A stretch of DNA of 64,000 nt from Minisyncoccia bacterium (GTDB lineage Bacteria; Patescibacteriota; Minisyncoccia; Phycocordibacterales; UBA9973), in NCBI GenBank assembly GCA_038249055.1, contig JBBRWS010000002.1:14118-78117 (forward strand). The letters are read 5' to 3'. Below are positions 5,344-41,664 of this stretch, one piece after another. The position numbers were made by a program, and so were the translations under genes. Each line of letters starts with the position of its first letter. Position 1 is the first letter of the stretch. The notes below the pieces were generated by a model that was given only the letters and a program-made list of their open reading frames with translations, ran no database searches and was not told the DNA's origin.

Positions 5344-6612
5344 ATGGAAATTGTTTGGAACAAAATAAAAGCAATATTTACAGATAAAACCTTAAGAAAT
5401 AGGGTTTTGTTTGTGTTTGCTGCTTTAGCTGTGTTCCGACTTTTGTCAGCTATTCCTGTCCCAGGAGTTGATGCCATAAAGCTTCAAAATTTTCTAAGTA
5501 ATAACCAATTAGCCGGTGTTTTAAATATTTTTTCTGGTGGAGGGTTATCAACTCTTTCTATAATTATGCTCGGAGTTGGTCCATACATTACATCTTCTAT
5601 TATAATGCAGCTTTTGACCATCATGTCACCTAGACTTAAGGCGATGTATCAAGAGGATGGAGAAATAGGACGCAAAAAATTTACACAATTTAGTAGAATG
5701 ATTACCGTTCCCTTGGCTATAGTTCAAGGTTTAGCTTTACTAGTTTTATTGAGACGCCAAGGTATTATTTTAGATGTTTCAGCTTTTGGTATGCTTGTAA
5801 ATCTTTCAGTTGTAGTTGCCGGTTCAATGCTTATAATGTGGATTGGTGAATTGGTTTCAGAATTTGGTATTGGAAACGGTGTTTCATTAATAATCTTTGC
5901 AGGTATTGTTGCTGCTATGCCAAAAGAAATATGGAATTTCTTTTTCACTTTTGATATTTCTAAATTACCCGTATATCTTTTATTCTTAGCAACTGGTTTA
6001 TTAATAGTTGCTGGAGTAGTTGTTGTTACAGAAGCAGAACGTCCTATTCCTGTGACTTATGCAAAACAGGTTCGCGGTGATCATGTTTCTGGAGGTACTC
6101 AAACATATCTTCCACTTCGTATCAACCAAGCAGGAGTAATTCCAATAATTTTTGCACTTTCAATATTAATGTTTCCACAATTGATTGGTAATTTCTTGGC
6201 TACTTATACTGGATTTTTGAAGTCAATTTCAGTTGGACTATTATGGTTTGTTCAAAATACATGGCTATATTCACTATTCTATTTTATCTTTGTATTTTTA
6301 TTTACTTACTTTTATACTGCTGTTACTTTCGACCCAGAACAAGTTTCAACAAACTTACAGAAGAATGGAGCATTCGTTCCAGGTATTCGTCCAGGTGCAG
6401 CTACAAGAGACTATATATCAAAGATACTAAATCGTACGACTATGATGGGGGCAGTCTTTCTTGGCTTAATAGCAGTTCTTCCTCTTATCATAAGAGCCAT
6501 AACTGGAATATCAGCCTTTGCAATTGGAGGTACAGCACTTTTGATTGTTGTGTCTGTAGTCCTGGATTTAATTAAAAAAGTTGAAGCGCAATTATCAATG
6601 AGAGAATATTAA
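5344..6612 (+). CDS. secY: preprotein translocase subunit SecY
   Basis: 422-aa polytopic membrane protein following rplO. The start codon is uncertain. Confidence 0.85.
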   Translation: MEIVWNKIKAIFTDKTLRNRVLFVFAALAVFRLLSAIPVPGVDAIKLQNFLSNNQLAGVLNIFSGGGLSTLSIIMLGVGPYITSSIIMQLLTIMSPRLKAMYQEDGEIGRKKFTQFSRMITVPLAIVQGLALLVLLRRQGIILDVSAFGMLVNLSVVVAGSMLIMWIGELVSEFGIGNGVSLIIFAGIVAAMPKEIWNFFFTFDISKLPVYLLFLATGLLIVAGVVVVTEAERPIPVTYAKQVRGDHVSGGTQTYLPLRINQAGVIPIIFALSILMFPQLIGNFLATYTGFLKSISVGLLWFVQNTWLYSLFYFIFVFLFTYFYTAVTFDPEQVSTNLQKNGAFVPGIRPGAATRDYISKILNRTTMMGAVFLGLIAVLPLIIRAITGISAFAIGGTALLIVVSVVLDLIKKVEAQLSMREY

Positions 6613-20610: not shown

Positions 20611-20668
20611 AAAAAAAATAGTAGAGGTTGGACGTCTTCCGTAGATGTACAACCTCTACTATTTTTTT
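20611..20668. terminator. repeat-family hairpin acting as a bidirectional terminator (A-run, TAGAGGTTGGACGTC..GTACAACCTCTA, T-run)
   Basis: Lies between convergent genes. Confidence 0.65.
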
Positions 20669-27062: not shown

Positions 27063-27504
27063 GATCTAATTTTAGTTTATTGAATTTTCTTTACCACTCT
27101 AAATAGGGGAACAAAGAAAATTCAATAAATTAAATTTAACCAAAATTTTAAAGAGCGCACTCCTTATATGATAGCATGTTTTGTGGTAAAAGTCAAGGGA
27201 GAGGTGGCGGGATATCTTCCTCTACGAATGCGGGAACCACGAGTACGTGTTCGGTCACTCATAATTTTCTGGTGAAAATTTGTGCGACCCTCAATCAGTA
27301 GATTGACCTCACGGGCGACTCGCACCGTCTTTCGATTCCCGCGGGACCGCGAGTACGCTTATCGAACACTACGTTTTCAGGTACTTTTCGATTTGGTTAA
27401 CACCAAATAGCGAAAAGTCTTTCGATTTCCGCACTCGAGCAAAGCAGTTTGCTCGCTCATCTCCACATATGAAAAAACATCCTGTAAAGGATGTTTTTTC
27501 ATAT

Positions 27505-27896
27505 GTGGAGATGGCGGGAATCGAACCCGCGTGCAAAGAGAACTCTTATAGAAATCTACATGTTTAGTATATCCAATTGGGTTTAAATGTTTATTCTAGA
27601 GGACATACAAGAAAAATAAACACCGAGCTTTTAATTGTCGGACTTTACATCAAGCGGTTGTAAAATCGTAACCAGATAAATTATGCCCACTCTTTATATC
27701 TGATGTCAAAAGAGTAGACACCCGCGAGGCCTAATTAGGCGAATGCGGGAGCAAAATTACCGAACCCAAAAGAGTAAGGTGATTTTACTGAAGCGACTTT
27801 GTTTGCACTTAGTCTTTTCCAAGAAGTTTTAAAAGATTCCTGAGTACTTTACATGCATATATAAGAGGATTCACCTTGTCGAAGCCGATCATCCCC
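27505..27896 (-). ncRNA. ssrA: tmRNA (SsrA)
   Basis: Minus-strand 5' end GGGGAUGAUCGGCUUCGACAAGG with a G3-U pair in the acceptor stem. 3' tRNA-like domain GCGGGUUCGAUUCCCGCCAUCUCCA. Candidate tag reading frame GCA AAC AAA GUC GCU UCA ... GCA UUC GCC UAA (ANKVASVKSPYSFGFGNFAPAFA). Adjacent to smpB. Confidence 0.8.
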
Positions 27897-31343: not shown

Positions 31344-31464
31344 CAAATATAGTGTTTTTTCTGTAATATATGAATACCAACATATCCGCCCTTAGCTGTC
31401 TTGGTTCCTAAACAGTGGGTTTGATTGGTAAAAGAAAATTTTATTGTATTGTGAGTTTAACCAT

Positions 31465-31538
31465 CCGCCCTTAGCTCAGTTGGTTAGAGCACAGAGCTTA
31501 TACCTCTGGGGTCCTAGGTTCGAATCCTAGAGGGCGGA
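31465..31538 (+). tRNA. tRNA-Ile (anticodon UAU)
   Basis: Folded manually. Acceptor CCGCCCU/AGGGCGG, D-arm GCUC..GAGC, anticodon stem CAGAG/CUCUG with loop CUUAUAC, T-arm CUAGG-UUCGAAU-CCUAG, discriminator A. Terminator CAGGGGTTACCCTG + T7 at 31544-31572. Confidence 0.8.
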
Positions 31539-31574
31539 CAATTAAAAAAATCAGGGGTTACCCTGGTTTTTTTA

Positions 31575-32000
31575 ATTGTCCGCCCTAGCAAGCAAACTAC
31601 TTTGCTTGCGTCTAGGATTCGAAGACCTTGAGCATGTATCATGAAATTTTAATTTCAGGATACGCGAAAGGTGTACAGAATCTGTAAGATTCGAAAAGCG
31701 TAATCGCGGTCCTAGAGGGCCAGAGCGTCTAGGATTCGAAAGACTTTTCATTATCAGCTTTGCTGATTGAAAAGTACCTGGCTACGTGGTAGCCGAAAAA
31801 TGTACTCATGGTCCTAGAGTATTATAAAAATAGAGGTTGGACGTCTCCCGTAGACGTACAACCTCTATTTTTATATGGTCCGCCCTAGCAAGCAAACTAC
31901 TTTGCTTGCGTCTAGGATTCGAAAACCTTTTCCTTGTGAGTGTACTCGCGAACGGAAAAGGTGTACTGGTCCAGTAAGGACCGAAAAGTGTACTCACGGT
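31575..32000. repeat. tRNA-Ile-adjacent repeat array: two copies of GTCCGCCCTAGCAAGCAAACTACTTTGCTTGCGTCTAGGATTCGAA plus GATTCGAAAGACTTTTC..GAAAAGT(G)TACTCAYGGTCCTAG modules
   Basis: Copies at 31575-31625 and 31868-31925. GGTCCTAGAG and GTCCGCCCT are inverted or partial copies of the tRNA 3' end (TCCTAGAGGGCGGAC). Confidence 0.7.
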
Positions 32001-32150
32001 CCTAGTGCATTTTATAAATTAGACTGCGAGGCGATTTAACCATTGACAATATGCATATAATTATGGTATAATAAAAATACAGTTTTATTACTTTGTATAT
32101 AAAGTATATAATCAAGGTAATTAAAAATTAATAATTAACTCATCTTATTT

Positions 32151-36201: not shown

Positions 36202-36274
36202 AAAAATAGAGGTTGGACGTCTCAATCAGTAAGTTGACTTACTGGGTAAGGGGGACGTACAACCTCTATTTTTG
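36202..36274. terminator. repeat-family hairpin/terminator (TAGAGGTTGGACGTC-TCAATCAGTAAGTTGACTTACTGGG-..GACGTACAACCTCTA) with flanking A/T runs
   Basis: Directly after the stop of the 1226-aa gene. Confidence 0.65.
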
Positions 36275-40693: not shown

Positions 40694-40790
40694 TACCGCC
40701 TATAGCTATAAATATAATTAGTAAAATTATAGTTCTTGTTTTACTTAATTCTTTTTTCATGTAAATATTATATCAGAATATTTTATATTG

Positions 40791-40879
40791 CGGAGACGGC
40801 GAGATTCGAACTCGCGAGGGGGTTTGAAGCCCCTGCCTCTTTAGCAAAGAGGTACGTTAGACCACTCTGACACGTCTCC
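40791..40879 (-). tRNA. tRNA-Ser (anticodon GCU), type II
   Basis: Minus strand GGAGACG..anticodon stem CCUCU/AGAGG with loop UUGCUAA, a long variable arm, T-arm GCGAG-UUCGAAU-CUCGC, discriminator G. Confidence 0.8.
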
Positions 40880-41110
40880 TTAATATACAAAGTAACACAA
40901 TTATGCTTATTTCTCAATAATATTTTATTATTAAAAATAAATGTGTTAGTATATTGAGGTTAGTAAAAATGAAATACGGAGGCGTGGATATGAAATATAA
41001 ACTGCTTTATATTTCATCCGTTCAGTTCAAAACTGACAATCTTATGTGCGAAGCACAAGATTGAGGGAAGGGTCCGGTAGGACACGAAGACACGCCGACG
41101 AGCTACGCGA

Positions 41111-41196
41111 GGAGGCGTGGATGAGTGGCTTAAATCAACGGTTTACTAAACCGTCGTCCCCTTAAAGGACCGTGAGTTCGAATCTCACCGCCTCCG
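41111..41196 (+). tRNA. type-II tRNA, Ser-like (G73, long variable arm) with atypical anticodon loop UUACUAA (formal anticodon ACU)
   Basis: Acceptor GGAGGCG/CGCCUCC, 3-bp D-stem, anticodon stem ACGGU/ACCGU, variable hairpin GUCC-CCUUAAA-GGAC, T-arm GUGAG-UUCGAAU-CUCAC. Confidence 0.65.
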
Positions 41197-41229
41197 CATG
41201 TTGAAAAAATTGCCCTTTTATGGGGCATT

Positions 41230-41612
41230 TTTTCTTATGCGGAGGTGAACAAATGAACTGCTTCATTTGTGTGTGAGATTCGAAAGACTTTTCCTTGTTG
41301 TAGACGGAAAAGTACCCGCCGCAGTATCGGCGAATCTCACCGCCTCCGCAAAAAACAGAAAACCCGAAAGGGTTTTTCTTTTTGCGGGCGAAAGAGCAAA
41401 CTGCTTTGCTCTTGTGTGAGATTCGAAAGACTTTTCGTTCTCTGGTGTTAACCAGAGCGAAAAGTACCTGGCTATGTAGTAGCCGAAAAATGTACTCATG
41501 GTCTCACTGCTACATTCGAAAGACTTTTTTTTATTGAAGATAGAAATACCTCAATTAACAAATTGACCTACTGGGCGCCGCAGTATCGGCGAATCTCACC
41601 GCCTCCGCAAAT
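41230..41612. repeat. tRNA-adjacent repeat array: TGTGTGAGATTCGAAAGACTTTTC..GAAAAGTACC modules plus two direct copies of the tRNA 3' end (CGCAGTATCGGCGAATCTCACCGCCTCCGCA)
   Basis: The tRNA 3' end GAATCTCACCGCCTCCGCA recurs at 41335-41358 and 41590-41612. GTGAGATTCGAA is the inverted T-arm. Confidence 0.7.
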
Positions 41613-41615
41613 AAT

Positions 41616-41664
41616 AAAAATAGAGGTTGTACGTCTACGGGAGACGTCCAACCTCTATTTTTAT
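41616..41664. terminator. repeat-family hairpin/terminator, inverse orientation (TAGAGGTTGTACGTC..GACGTCCAACCTCTA)
   Basis: Downstream of the minus-strand gene 41673..42179. Its orientation is flipped relative to the copies after plus-strand genes. Confidence 0.65.

Follow-up and report, generated by a model that had tools for sequence, protein, structure and literature searches.

The question raised by a 64,000-nucleotide (nt) stretch of genomic DNA from a Minisyncoccia bacterium (contig JBBRWS010000002.1 of assembly GCA_038249055.1, positions 14,118 to 78,117; hereafter the window) is what the repeat arrays are that follow its transfer RNA (tRNA) and transfer-messenger RNA (tmRNA) genes. 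The 3' ends of such genes are classic integration sites, and a sequence-only reading of this DNA had proposed that the arrays are a series of att-site remnants left by inserted elements, or else a mobile element that targets tRNA genes. The repeats that it listed are all present, far above chance and with small corrections only, and the label of an element that targets tRNA genes suits the direct duplications of a tRNA 3' end with variable inserted DNA. Two properties went unseen, namely that every unit also holds an inverted copy of the tRNA 3' end and that one conserved fold serves for all units. Our preferred account, to which we assign a probability of about 0.5, is that the units are small non-autonomous elements situated 3' of tRNA and tmRNA genes in Patescibacteria, with arms made by fold-back copying, cores that are exchanged between loci, and a core that exists as folded RNA.

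Two to three units of ~95-145 nt lie downstream of each of the tmRNA, tRNA-Ile(TAT) and tRNA-Ser(ACT) genes, on the strand of the gene itself. From the gene outward, the plan is tRNA 3' end, a spacer hairpin (usually terminator-like), left arm, core and right arm. The left arm reproduces tRNA positions 54-74 as their exact reverse complement, T-loop included, and runs as P1' (the complement of the acceptor 3' strand), hairpin A (hpA), then P2' and AUUCGAA (the complement of the T-stem 3' strand and the T-loop); hairpin A is conserved, sits at the boundary of acceptor stem and T-stem (the 65/66 junction) and often has a CUGC or UGGGA loop. The core is a three-hairpin junction (P3, P4 and P5) closed by stem P2, in the order RAC, P3, GUAC, P4, GAAAA, P5 (RYG-UAMU-CRY) and GG. 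The right arm is a direct copy of tRNA positions 60-74, made up of U60 with the T-stem 3' strand (P2'') and, optionally, the acceptor 3' strand (P1''); sometimes it comprises the T-stem strand only. Pairing of the left with the right arm closes the core by a helix that copies the T-stem and acceptor stem of the tRNA. Units internal to an array can be without P1 and hairpin A, adjacent cores then being linked by a short hairpin of two T-stem strands. Single units fold to this plan with z-scores of -3.6 to -6.5.

Six clear units are found in the window by R1, a covariance model built from relatives, and all are at these three loci. The tmRNA gene (27503-27896, minus strand; called by ARAGORN and by Rfam RF00023 at 126.8 bits) is host to the first array, whose units lie downstream on the minus strand at ~27198-27467. 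The terminator-like spacer hairpin (27468-27502, minus strand) forms, with the last 10 nt of the tmRNA and the first 10 nt of the first unit, a perfect 26-bp palindrome, unpaired in the fold at a 4-nt loop alone. That first unit, tm1 (27341-27467, minus strand), consists of the inverted acceptor strand TGTGGAGATG, hairpin A, the inverted T-stem/T-loop GCGGAAATCGAA, a type-1 core and GGTCCCGC; its R1 match covers 27341-27434 (54.5 bits, E=7e-11). The second, tm2 (27230-27342, minus strand), runs from GCGGGAATCGAA to CGTACTCGTGGTTCCCGC with a type-4 core, includes an exact inverted 12-mer of the tmRNA T-loop/T-stem, matches R1 weakly and has a homologous core at locus L006, and a degenerate direct copy of the tmRNA 3' end, TATCCCGCCACCTCTCCC, can be read at 27198-27214 on the same strand. 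The echo of the tmRNA 3' end that had been suspected here exists and is short, comprising the T-stem strand TCCCGC, the inverted T-loop AATCGAA and the inverted acceptor strand already given.

The tRNA-Ile(TAT) gene (31465-31539, plus strand; ARAGORN, and Rfam at 70.5 bits) is followed on the same strand by a palindromic, terminator-like spacer hairpin (31540-31577) that is continuous on one side with the tRNA 3' end and on the other with the left arm. Unit I1 (31578-31721, plus strand; R1 101 bits, E=1e-21; fold z=-5.5) has a 46-nt left arm (inverted acceptor strand, hairpin A, inverted T-stem/T-loop), a type-2 core and the right arm TCCTAGAGGGC. The minimal unit I2 (31727-31819, plus strand; R1 58 bits) contains P2 and a type-1 core, with neither acceptor-like stem nor hairpin A, and I3 (31878-32005, plus strand; R1 87.4 bits) joins the left arm of I1 to a type-3 core and the right arm TCCTAG. 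This left arm is the segment previously reported as a 50-nt repeat beginning at 31575 and 31868; it does occur twice, as an exact 46-mer at 31578-31623 and 31878-31923, with zero copies expected by chance. The three modules ending in GGTCCTAG are likewise found at this locus, the pattern GAAAAGTGTACTCAYGGTC has 5 matches in the window against 0.02 expected, and the module motifs occur 5-9 times each against 0.02-2 expected.

At the third locus, the type-II tRNA gene is tRNA-Ser(ACT) (41111-41197, or 41111-41198 in the feature list; plus strand; ARAGORN and Rfam), and the direct repeat of its 3' end, GAATCTCACCGCCTCCGCA, occurs three times as stated (41180-98, 41332-50 and 41591-609). A terminator-like spacer hairpin (41199-41237, plus strand) leads to S1 (41238-41350, plus strand; R1 57 bits), a closed and complete unit with P1, hairpin A, P2, a short core without P5 and the 19-nt direct repeat at its end, folding at -50.5 kcal/mol (z=-6.5). 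A second such hairpin (41351-41382, plus strand) precedes S2 (41383-41508, plus strand; R1 72 bits), with a 2-nt deletion in its left arm, hairpin A, a type-1 core and GGTCTCAC; the unit at locus L004 shares the GCGGGCG left arm of S2 and the spacer before it. S3 (41514-41609, plus strand) has a divergent core of a type kept in the syntenic genome bin13, and its terminal 19-nt direct repeat closes the S2-S3 pair. The near-exact sequence said to be shared by the Ile and Ser loci is a 45-mer at 31769-31813, in I2, and 41459-41503, in S2.

Comparison with relatives rests on an 8-kb locus per match and on the one 64-kb window. Loci (L numbers) were gathered from species-representative genomes by a degenerate core pattern that requires ATTCGAA and the core signature, and 72 matched. 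R1, derived from an alignment (A1) of 25 complete units, confirms 70 of the 72, with 84 matches in 57 Patescibacteria assemblies, the E-values of this home-made model being rough. The two unconfirmed loci, from Planctomycetota and Acidobacteria, are taken to be chance matches. The 57 assemblies are labelled Paceibacterota, Nomura-, Kaiser-, Zambryski- and Woesebacteria, 'Saccharibacteria' or unclassified, and in one case Bacteroides; this last (L019, CAZYEM010000298.1, 'uncultured Bacteroides sp.') has a unit of the usual form, its arms being of the tRNA-Tyr type, and is probably a mis-binned Patescibacteria contig.

In alignment A1, 91% of cells are paired, compared with 68% in shuffles and 38-51% with slid partners; both sides have changed in 29 of 39 pairs, and the score for covariation reaches 0.578, slid controls giving 0.08-0.19. 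The covariation of P1 and P2 is trivial because the arms equal the tRNA. Hairpin A, P3, P4 and P5 covary independently of tRNA identity, and the unpaired core motifs (RAC, GUAC, GAAAA, the UACU hairpin and GG) are invariant.

The association with tRNA genes is close. Fifty-two of 90 units lie no more than 120 nt downstream of a tRNA or tmRNA gene detected by ARAGORN, on the same strand, and 10 more stand behind another unit; several of those remaining follow decayed tRNA remnants or tRNA genes that ARAGORN missed because they are interrupted by group I introns. Such introns lie upstream of units at L001 (6967-7192), L020 (4491-4730) and L048 (2021-2291); PMC13011429 may be compared on this point. 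At least 11 tRNA species act as hosts, including five Ser isoacceptors, Tyr, Gln, Arg, Ile, Pro, His, Val, Gly, Glu and tmRNA. Downstream of 56 of 81 tRNAs, at a distance of 23-100 nt, stands the inverted 12-mer of their positions 54-65, against 6 of 81 upstream and 47 of 4490 non-cognate pairs.

That the arms derive from the adjacent gene is most clearly seen where the gene departs from the usual sequence. Behind tRNAs with variant T-loops (TTCGATT, TTCGACT, TTCAAAT), all seven of seven units carry the matching complement (AAUCGAA, AGUCGAA, AUUUGAA); since this 7-nt stretch has no partner inside the unit, internal pairing cannot explain the match. Wherever the acceptor stem has a G.U pair, the 5' strand of the unit is the Watson-Crick complement of the 3' strand (22 of 22 positions, both tmRNAs included), so that in both tmRNA-linked units the alanine identity pair G3.U70 is erased and replaced by A-U. 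In 46 tRNA-unit pairs the spacer is a hairpin continuous with the arms (median 37 nt) and the trailer is mirrored too, with perfect palindromes of 26-30 bp at seven loci, the window tmRNA and Ile loci among them. The terminal inverted repeats P1 and P2 vary by locus and match the local tRNA, and 33 right-arm copies across the loci are direct repeats of the tRNA 3' segment. At the level of sequence, the inverted arm, the treatment of G.U positions and the mirrored spacer are the signature of fold-back (palindrome-templated) copying, and they fit neither a duplicated tRNA nor the formation of attL/attR sites. A tRNA gene or pseudogene (RF00005) was also considered and rejected, there being no tRNA match by ARAGORN or Rfam over any window unit even at E<=10; a tRNA paralogue with a T-loop insertion, as a direct copy, is ruled out by the reverse-complemented variant T-loops and by the G.U positions, and an aminoacyl-tRNA synthetase mimic by the loss of G3.U70 behind both tmRNAs.

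Cores behave differently from arms. There are three main core types, each behind 5-8 tRNA species; the type-4 core follows tmRNA in the window and tRNA-Ile in the syntenic bin13, the arms fitting the local gene each time, and I1 and I3 have an identical left arm and different cores. Two relatives, bin13 (contig JAENWX010000003; L006 and L051) and L071, are syntenic with the window over 29-41 kb at 72-82% identity, and the tRNA-Ile array differs among the three genomes: type 2, type 1, palindromic terminator and type 3 in the window, type 1, a fragment and type 4 in bin13, and type 2 only in L071. The tRNA-Ser(GCT) gene of the window (40790-40879, minus strand; ARAGORN) has no unit, its best inverted 12-mer having 4 mismatches, and represents the empty state of a site that bears 2-3 units in bin13; the tRNA-Ser(ACT) orthologue in L002 is also without a unit. 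The comparison across relatives that had been recommended therefore reveals presence/absence polymorphism and arrays that are not identical in syntenic genomes: the modules are related to tRNA ends, and the arrays vary.

Units are nevertheless retained. A block of tRNA-Tyr and unit lies between the same two genes, in either orientation, in five genomes whose flanking genes are 73-82% identical. The blocks of L011 and L022 are 96.7% identical, against 75-82% for the genes on either side of them; the units of the remaining three genomes show ~80-85% identity and differ in hairpin A, P3b and P4, helices that vary by compensatory changes across the family. The unit has thus been kept in the long term yet also reshuffled. 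In the window, the divergent pair of Ser tRNAs lies inverted with respect to RecG, and blocks of tRNA plus unit occur in either orientation between the same flanks in L010, L011, L022, L031 and L060, as well as at 40790-41662 of the window relative to L051 and L071, which suggests that cassettes containing tRNAs may be recurrently inverted or re-inserted.

Several features bear on whether the units are transcribed. In 12 of the 46 pairs there is no T-run between tRNA and unit, and the two must therefore be co-transcribed. Three orthologous orphan units keep a promoter-like ATGCTAGAATA box upstream of a decayed tRNA-like stub; orphans in which the tRNA has decayed to a short T-arm-shaped stub are seen at L002 (4721-4960), L004 (4868-5105), L059 (1225-1437) and L044/L061. 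CCA follows the discriminator in 9 of 33 right arms and in 2 of 31 tRNA genes (p=0.045), which might reflect either mature tRNA as the template or selection for a tRNA-like 3' terminus; right arms with CCA where the tRNA gene has CAA, CAG or CTT are those of L013, L015, L022, L058, L060, L063, L065 and L008. In predicted folds of the co-transcript, the 3' part of the tRNA is in a long duplex with the left arm, and the tRNA 5' strands pair with the right arm.

The units resemble several known systems without coinciding with any of them. As in tyrosine-integrase attL/attR sites, a direct repeat running from the T-loop to the 3' end brackets an insert, sites may be occupied or empty, and a copy of the tRNA end comes with the insert, usually together with a terminator, such that the tRNA stays intact; unlike those sites, the insert is only ~100-150 nt, has neither integrase nor island genes, is absent from viral contigs, and adds a conserved folded core and the tRNA end in inverted form. 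REP/REPIN, Correia and MITE-like elements are similarly short, multi-copy, hairpin-forming and non-coding, lie after genes near terminators and in arrays with truncated copies, and are mobilized, if at all, in trans. The units differ from them in being tied strictly to tRNA/tmRNA 3' ends on one strand, in terminal inverted repeats that copy the local host gene, and in a core that is a multi-helix junction covarying across the phylum; an autonomous relative or cognate (RAYT-like) transposase was found neither in the 8-kb loci nor among the window open reading frames (ORFs) scanned.

Likeness to RNAs that mimic tRNA is also partial. The tRNA-like domain of tmRNA, the YrlA Y RNA and mascRNA join a copy of the acceptor and T-stem helix to a non-tRNA domain, and in dicistronic tRNA-snoRNA genes the second RNA likewise lies directly behind a tRNA, an arrangement in which tRNA-processing enzymes could release the unit. 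In contrast to tRNA mimics, the units copy a particular neighbouring tRNA, have the discriminator and C74 base-paired, have lost G.U identity pairs, hold the T-loop as its complement and match no Rfam family. Retroviral and long terminal repeat (LTR) primer-binding sites share a stretch of ~18-21 nt complementary to a specific tRNA 3' end, but the units pair with the gene-encoded N73-C-A and trailer, not CCA, and hairpin A interrupts the pairing. A primer-binding site or retroelement is ruled out by this complementarity to the gene, by the lack of a reverse transcriptase nearby, and by the reported absence from Patescibacteria of group II introns and hence of their reverse transcriptases (PMC13011429). 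In TIGR arrays, box C (RUGAUGA) and box D (CUGA) flank two short spacers and a Tas (Nop-domain) gene is nearby (PMC12045711); TIGR or box C/D guide RNAs were rejected, box C not being in the unit consensus and no neighbouring gene being recurrent. Hammerhead and hairpin ribozyme cores were compared by eye and set aside, the conserved CUGAUGA and related motifs being absent.

Database searches accord with this. Rfam 15 returned no family at gathering thresholds for the window and 12 loci, only genuine tRNA, tmRNA and group I introns; at E<=10 on the window, units were overlapped by weak matches far below gathering scores, mostly to microRNA models and also to CRISPR-repeat and Clostridiales-1 models. 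All-against-all clustering of the 1516 ORFs of the 72 loci gave no protein family in more than 11 loci, the loci recovered by a metagenome scan that started from the neighbouring 1226-aa protein were all distant and non-syntenic, and units were not found described by full-text searching of the literature. The element is apparently undescribed and appears to constitute a new class.

How such units might arise and persist can be outlined as follows. The arms would not be inherited with the core; fold-back DNA synthesis, running across the spacer hairpin and across the core, would write them with the host tRNA end as template and hold them identical to that tRNA. Cores would be exchanged or copied between tRNA loci, possibly via the shared boundaries ..UCGAA-RAC and GUAMUCRYGGU. 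Selection would act on the core in its folded, single-stranded form, most probably an RNA transcribed from the tRNA promoter; co-transcription would be obligatory where no terminator intervenes, and read-through would yield the RNA elsewhere. The tRNA-like closing helix would supply tRNA-type ends and stability. Several points weigh against this account. In 34 of the 46 pairs a terminator-like hairpin stands ahead of the unit, and an intrinsic terminator of that quality should end most tRNA transcripts before the unit is reached. The single-strand form could be RNA or single-stranded DNA: G.U exceeds A.C on the tRNA strand (194 against 85), but mostly through one conserved U.G at the base of P4 and so supports the strand assignment only moderately. 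With their long perfect palindromes and their truncated copies, the units resemble selfish DNA more than they do an RNA gene. Templating by fold-back alone accounts neither for the constant position of hairpin A at the 65/66 junction nor for the first arrival of a core at a new tRNA. Diversity and frequencies, furthermore, are biased by a seed pattern that needs ATTCGAA and the core motifs.

An alternative, which we consider unlikely, is a small integrative element whose mobile form is folded single-stranded DNA, as with CTX-phi attP(+) or an integron attC site. Here the left arm would pair with the copy of the tRNA end and rebuild a duplex target, a host tyrosine recombinase or HUH enzyme would recombine it with the region from T-loop to 3' end, and the core hairpins would be structures for protein recognition. 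Integration of the CTX-phi type leaves site, loop, inverted site, payload and site; the units show the corresponding order of direct copy, loop, inverted copy, payload and direct copy, with inverted target-like arms that could fold to a duplex target and enzymes that would come from elsewhere. Arm boundaries at the T-loop edges (53/54 and 59/60), perfect palindromes, the lack of any element-encoded protein, presence/absence polymorphism and tRNA-unit blocks lying either way round between the same flanks all agree with this. The targets, however, are many tRNA ends, not dif or attI, and a single host recombinase would have to accept at least 11 tRNA sequences; the payload is a junction of ~85 nt, not genes; and the folded stem restores just one half of the T-arm dyad. 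Such an element, ~130 nt long and lacking any replication function, would need a source of single strands, bursts within genomes are not seen (core types being equally conserved between and within genomes), and the tRNA-Tyr unit has long been retained vertically. The older proposal of attL/attR scars from the integration and loss of integrase-encoding islands or prophages has in its favour the direct repeats of the tRNA 3' end around inserted DNA; it is already at odds with the evidence and is the least probable of the explanations weighed here. The DNA between the repeats is not random debris: at 70 loci in 57 assemblies it is one and the same module of ~85 nt, conserved and covarying; no integrase or other recurrent gene is nearby, viral contigs gave zero matches in 2.9 million, which also tells against a phage origin, and attL/attR formation yields neither inverted copies of the tRNA end that reach the T-loop nor mirrored spacers and trailers. 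The statement that the window has no integrase gene holds for the 30 ORFs scanned with Pfam, mostly among the largest, in which domains of integrases, transposases and reverse transcriptases were all absent.

If the folded strand is RNA, it may serve the host or act on its own behalf. Quite improbable, in our view, is a host-beneficial antisense or guide RNA specific to its tRNA, in which the left arm would pair with the 3' third of the cognate tRNA or pre-tRNA, the right arm would be an internal decoy and the core would recruit a processing, modification or quality-control enzyme. The exact complementarity of the left arm to the cognate tRNA, even at T-loop positions without a partner in the unit, speaks for such a function, as do the better preservation of the left arm relative to the right (whose acceptor part is often missing), the pairing of tRNA and left arm in predicted co-transcript folds and the strong conservation of structure. 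A guide would not need a perfectly mirrored trailer and spacer, which point to DNA templating; only some tRNAs are occupied, and orthologous tRNAs can be empty; orphan units outlast the decay of their tRNA; a compensated base-pair change sets P2 of the L017 unit apart from the tRNA, which shows internal pairing to be preserved and not identity to the tRNA; and we know of no bacterial guide-RNA machinery that acts on tRNA. A related and somewhat less improbable possibility, though still a doubtful one, is that the units are programmable, target-templated RNAs, each tRNA gene having a partner RNA of its own, in which a 21-nt arm would be written by fold-back from the cognate tRNA and a junction that is catalytic or recruits a protein would act on the 3' third of that tRNA (in maturation, repair or surveillance) or guide the unit's own homing. 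At the other extreme, the units might have no function and be by-products of terminator palindromes growing by replication template switching, the covariation arising from quasi-palindrome correction. Perfect palindromes, many truncated copies and near-equal G.U and A.C counts in most helices speak for such a process, but we judge it very unlikely: unpaired core motifs are invariant in distant genomes, the U.G at the base of P4 is conserved 79 to 2, core types remain distinct and conserved from one assembly to another, and the units occur in one phylum only.

Other features of the window are given here as observations in their own right. It is chromosomal DNA of a cellular bacterium, encoding SecY, Map, TruB, an RNase J-like protein, FtsH, SmpB, RecG, enolase and a type IV pilus cluster, and it holds four tRNA-type genes by ARAGORN and Rfam. 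Its assignment to Patescibacteria (Parcubacteria/Paceibacteria) follows from DUF5663, the tmRNA tag and the relatives with matching loci. The TAT anticodon of tRNA-Ile would read AUA directly, unlike a lysidine-modified CAT, and the same gene occurs in L006, L041 and L071. A34 is rare in bacterial tRNAs other than tRNA-Arg; tRNA-Ser(ACT) lies divergently beside tRNA-Ser(GCT), a pairing seen also in L002, L029, L032, L037, L051, L066, L071 and L072. Directly past the Ile array is a near-consensus sigma-70 promoter-like site (32043-32072, TTGACA-18-TATAAT with TG), and directly past the tmRNA array another such site (27196-27168, minus strand, TTGACT-17-TATCAT with TG), so that each of these arrays spans the entire gap from the terminator of the RNA gene to the next promoter. 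A separate family of palindromic terminator-like repeats, AAAAATAGAGGTTG.ACGTC...GACGT.CAACCTCTATTTTT, has four copies (20617-20663, 31826-31872, 36202-36273 and 41616-41662); those at 31826-31872 and 41616-41662 (both listed on the plus strand) are reverse complements of each other, in flip and flop orientations.

A second type of duplication is found on the 5' side: 13 of 85 tRNAs are preceded by an exact, direct repeat of their own nt 1-12. In the window, the first 14 nt of tRNA-Ile recur ~80 nt upstream of the gene (31384-31397, plus strand; read from the sequence and by a 12-mer direct-repeat scan), and the orthologue in L071 has there (6330-6480) two tandem 72-nt copies of a promoter-like region with the tRNA 5' fragment. 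The tRNA-Ser(ACT) gene has a 5' element of ~135 nt (40975-41110, plus strand), consisting of a direct repeat of its nt 1-12, a hairpin with a AAACTGCTTT loop, more hairpins and an imperfect inverted copy; it is located between a promoter-like TGTGTTAGTAT and the tRNA, is present in L029 (6915-7020) and is absent in L002. With a hairpin like hairpin A and its inverted copy beside the tRNA, it is arranged as the mirror image of the 3' units.

Should the preferred account be confirmed, the units would be a phylum-wide class of element that takes its address sequences from the adjacent host gene; none of the mobile elements and RNA families described so far is known to us to do this. Much of the non-coding DNA beside tRNA genes in very small genomes would then be explained, and repeated palindrome-templated sequence copying would have a concrete natural case. 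The units would amount either to a new tRNA-linked regulatory or quality-control RNA or to a new way in which tiny elements that encode no enzyme themselves occupy tRNA genes; if instead the programmable-RNA possibility were true, they would constitute a new class of sequence-addressed bacterial RNA system, in a phylum that is without many standard pathways. The annotation of tRNA flanks in Patescibacteria, and searches for integration sites there, would have to take these units into consideration.

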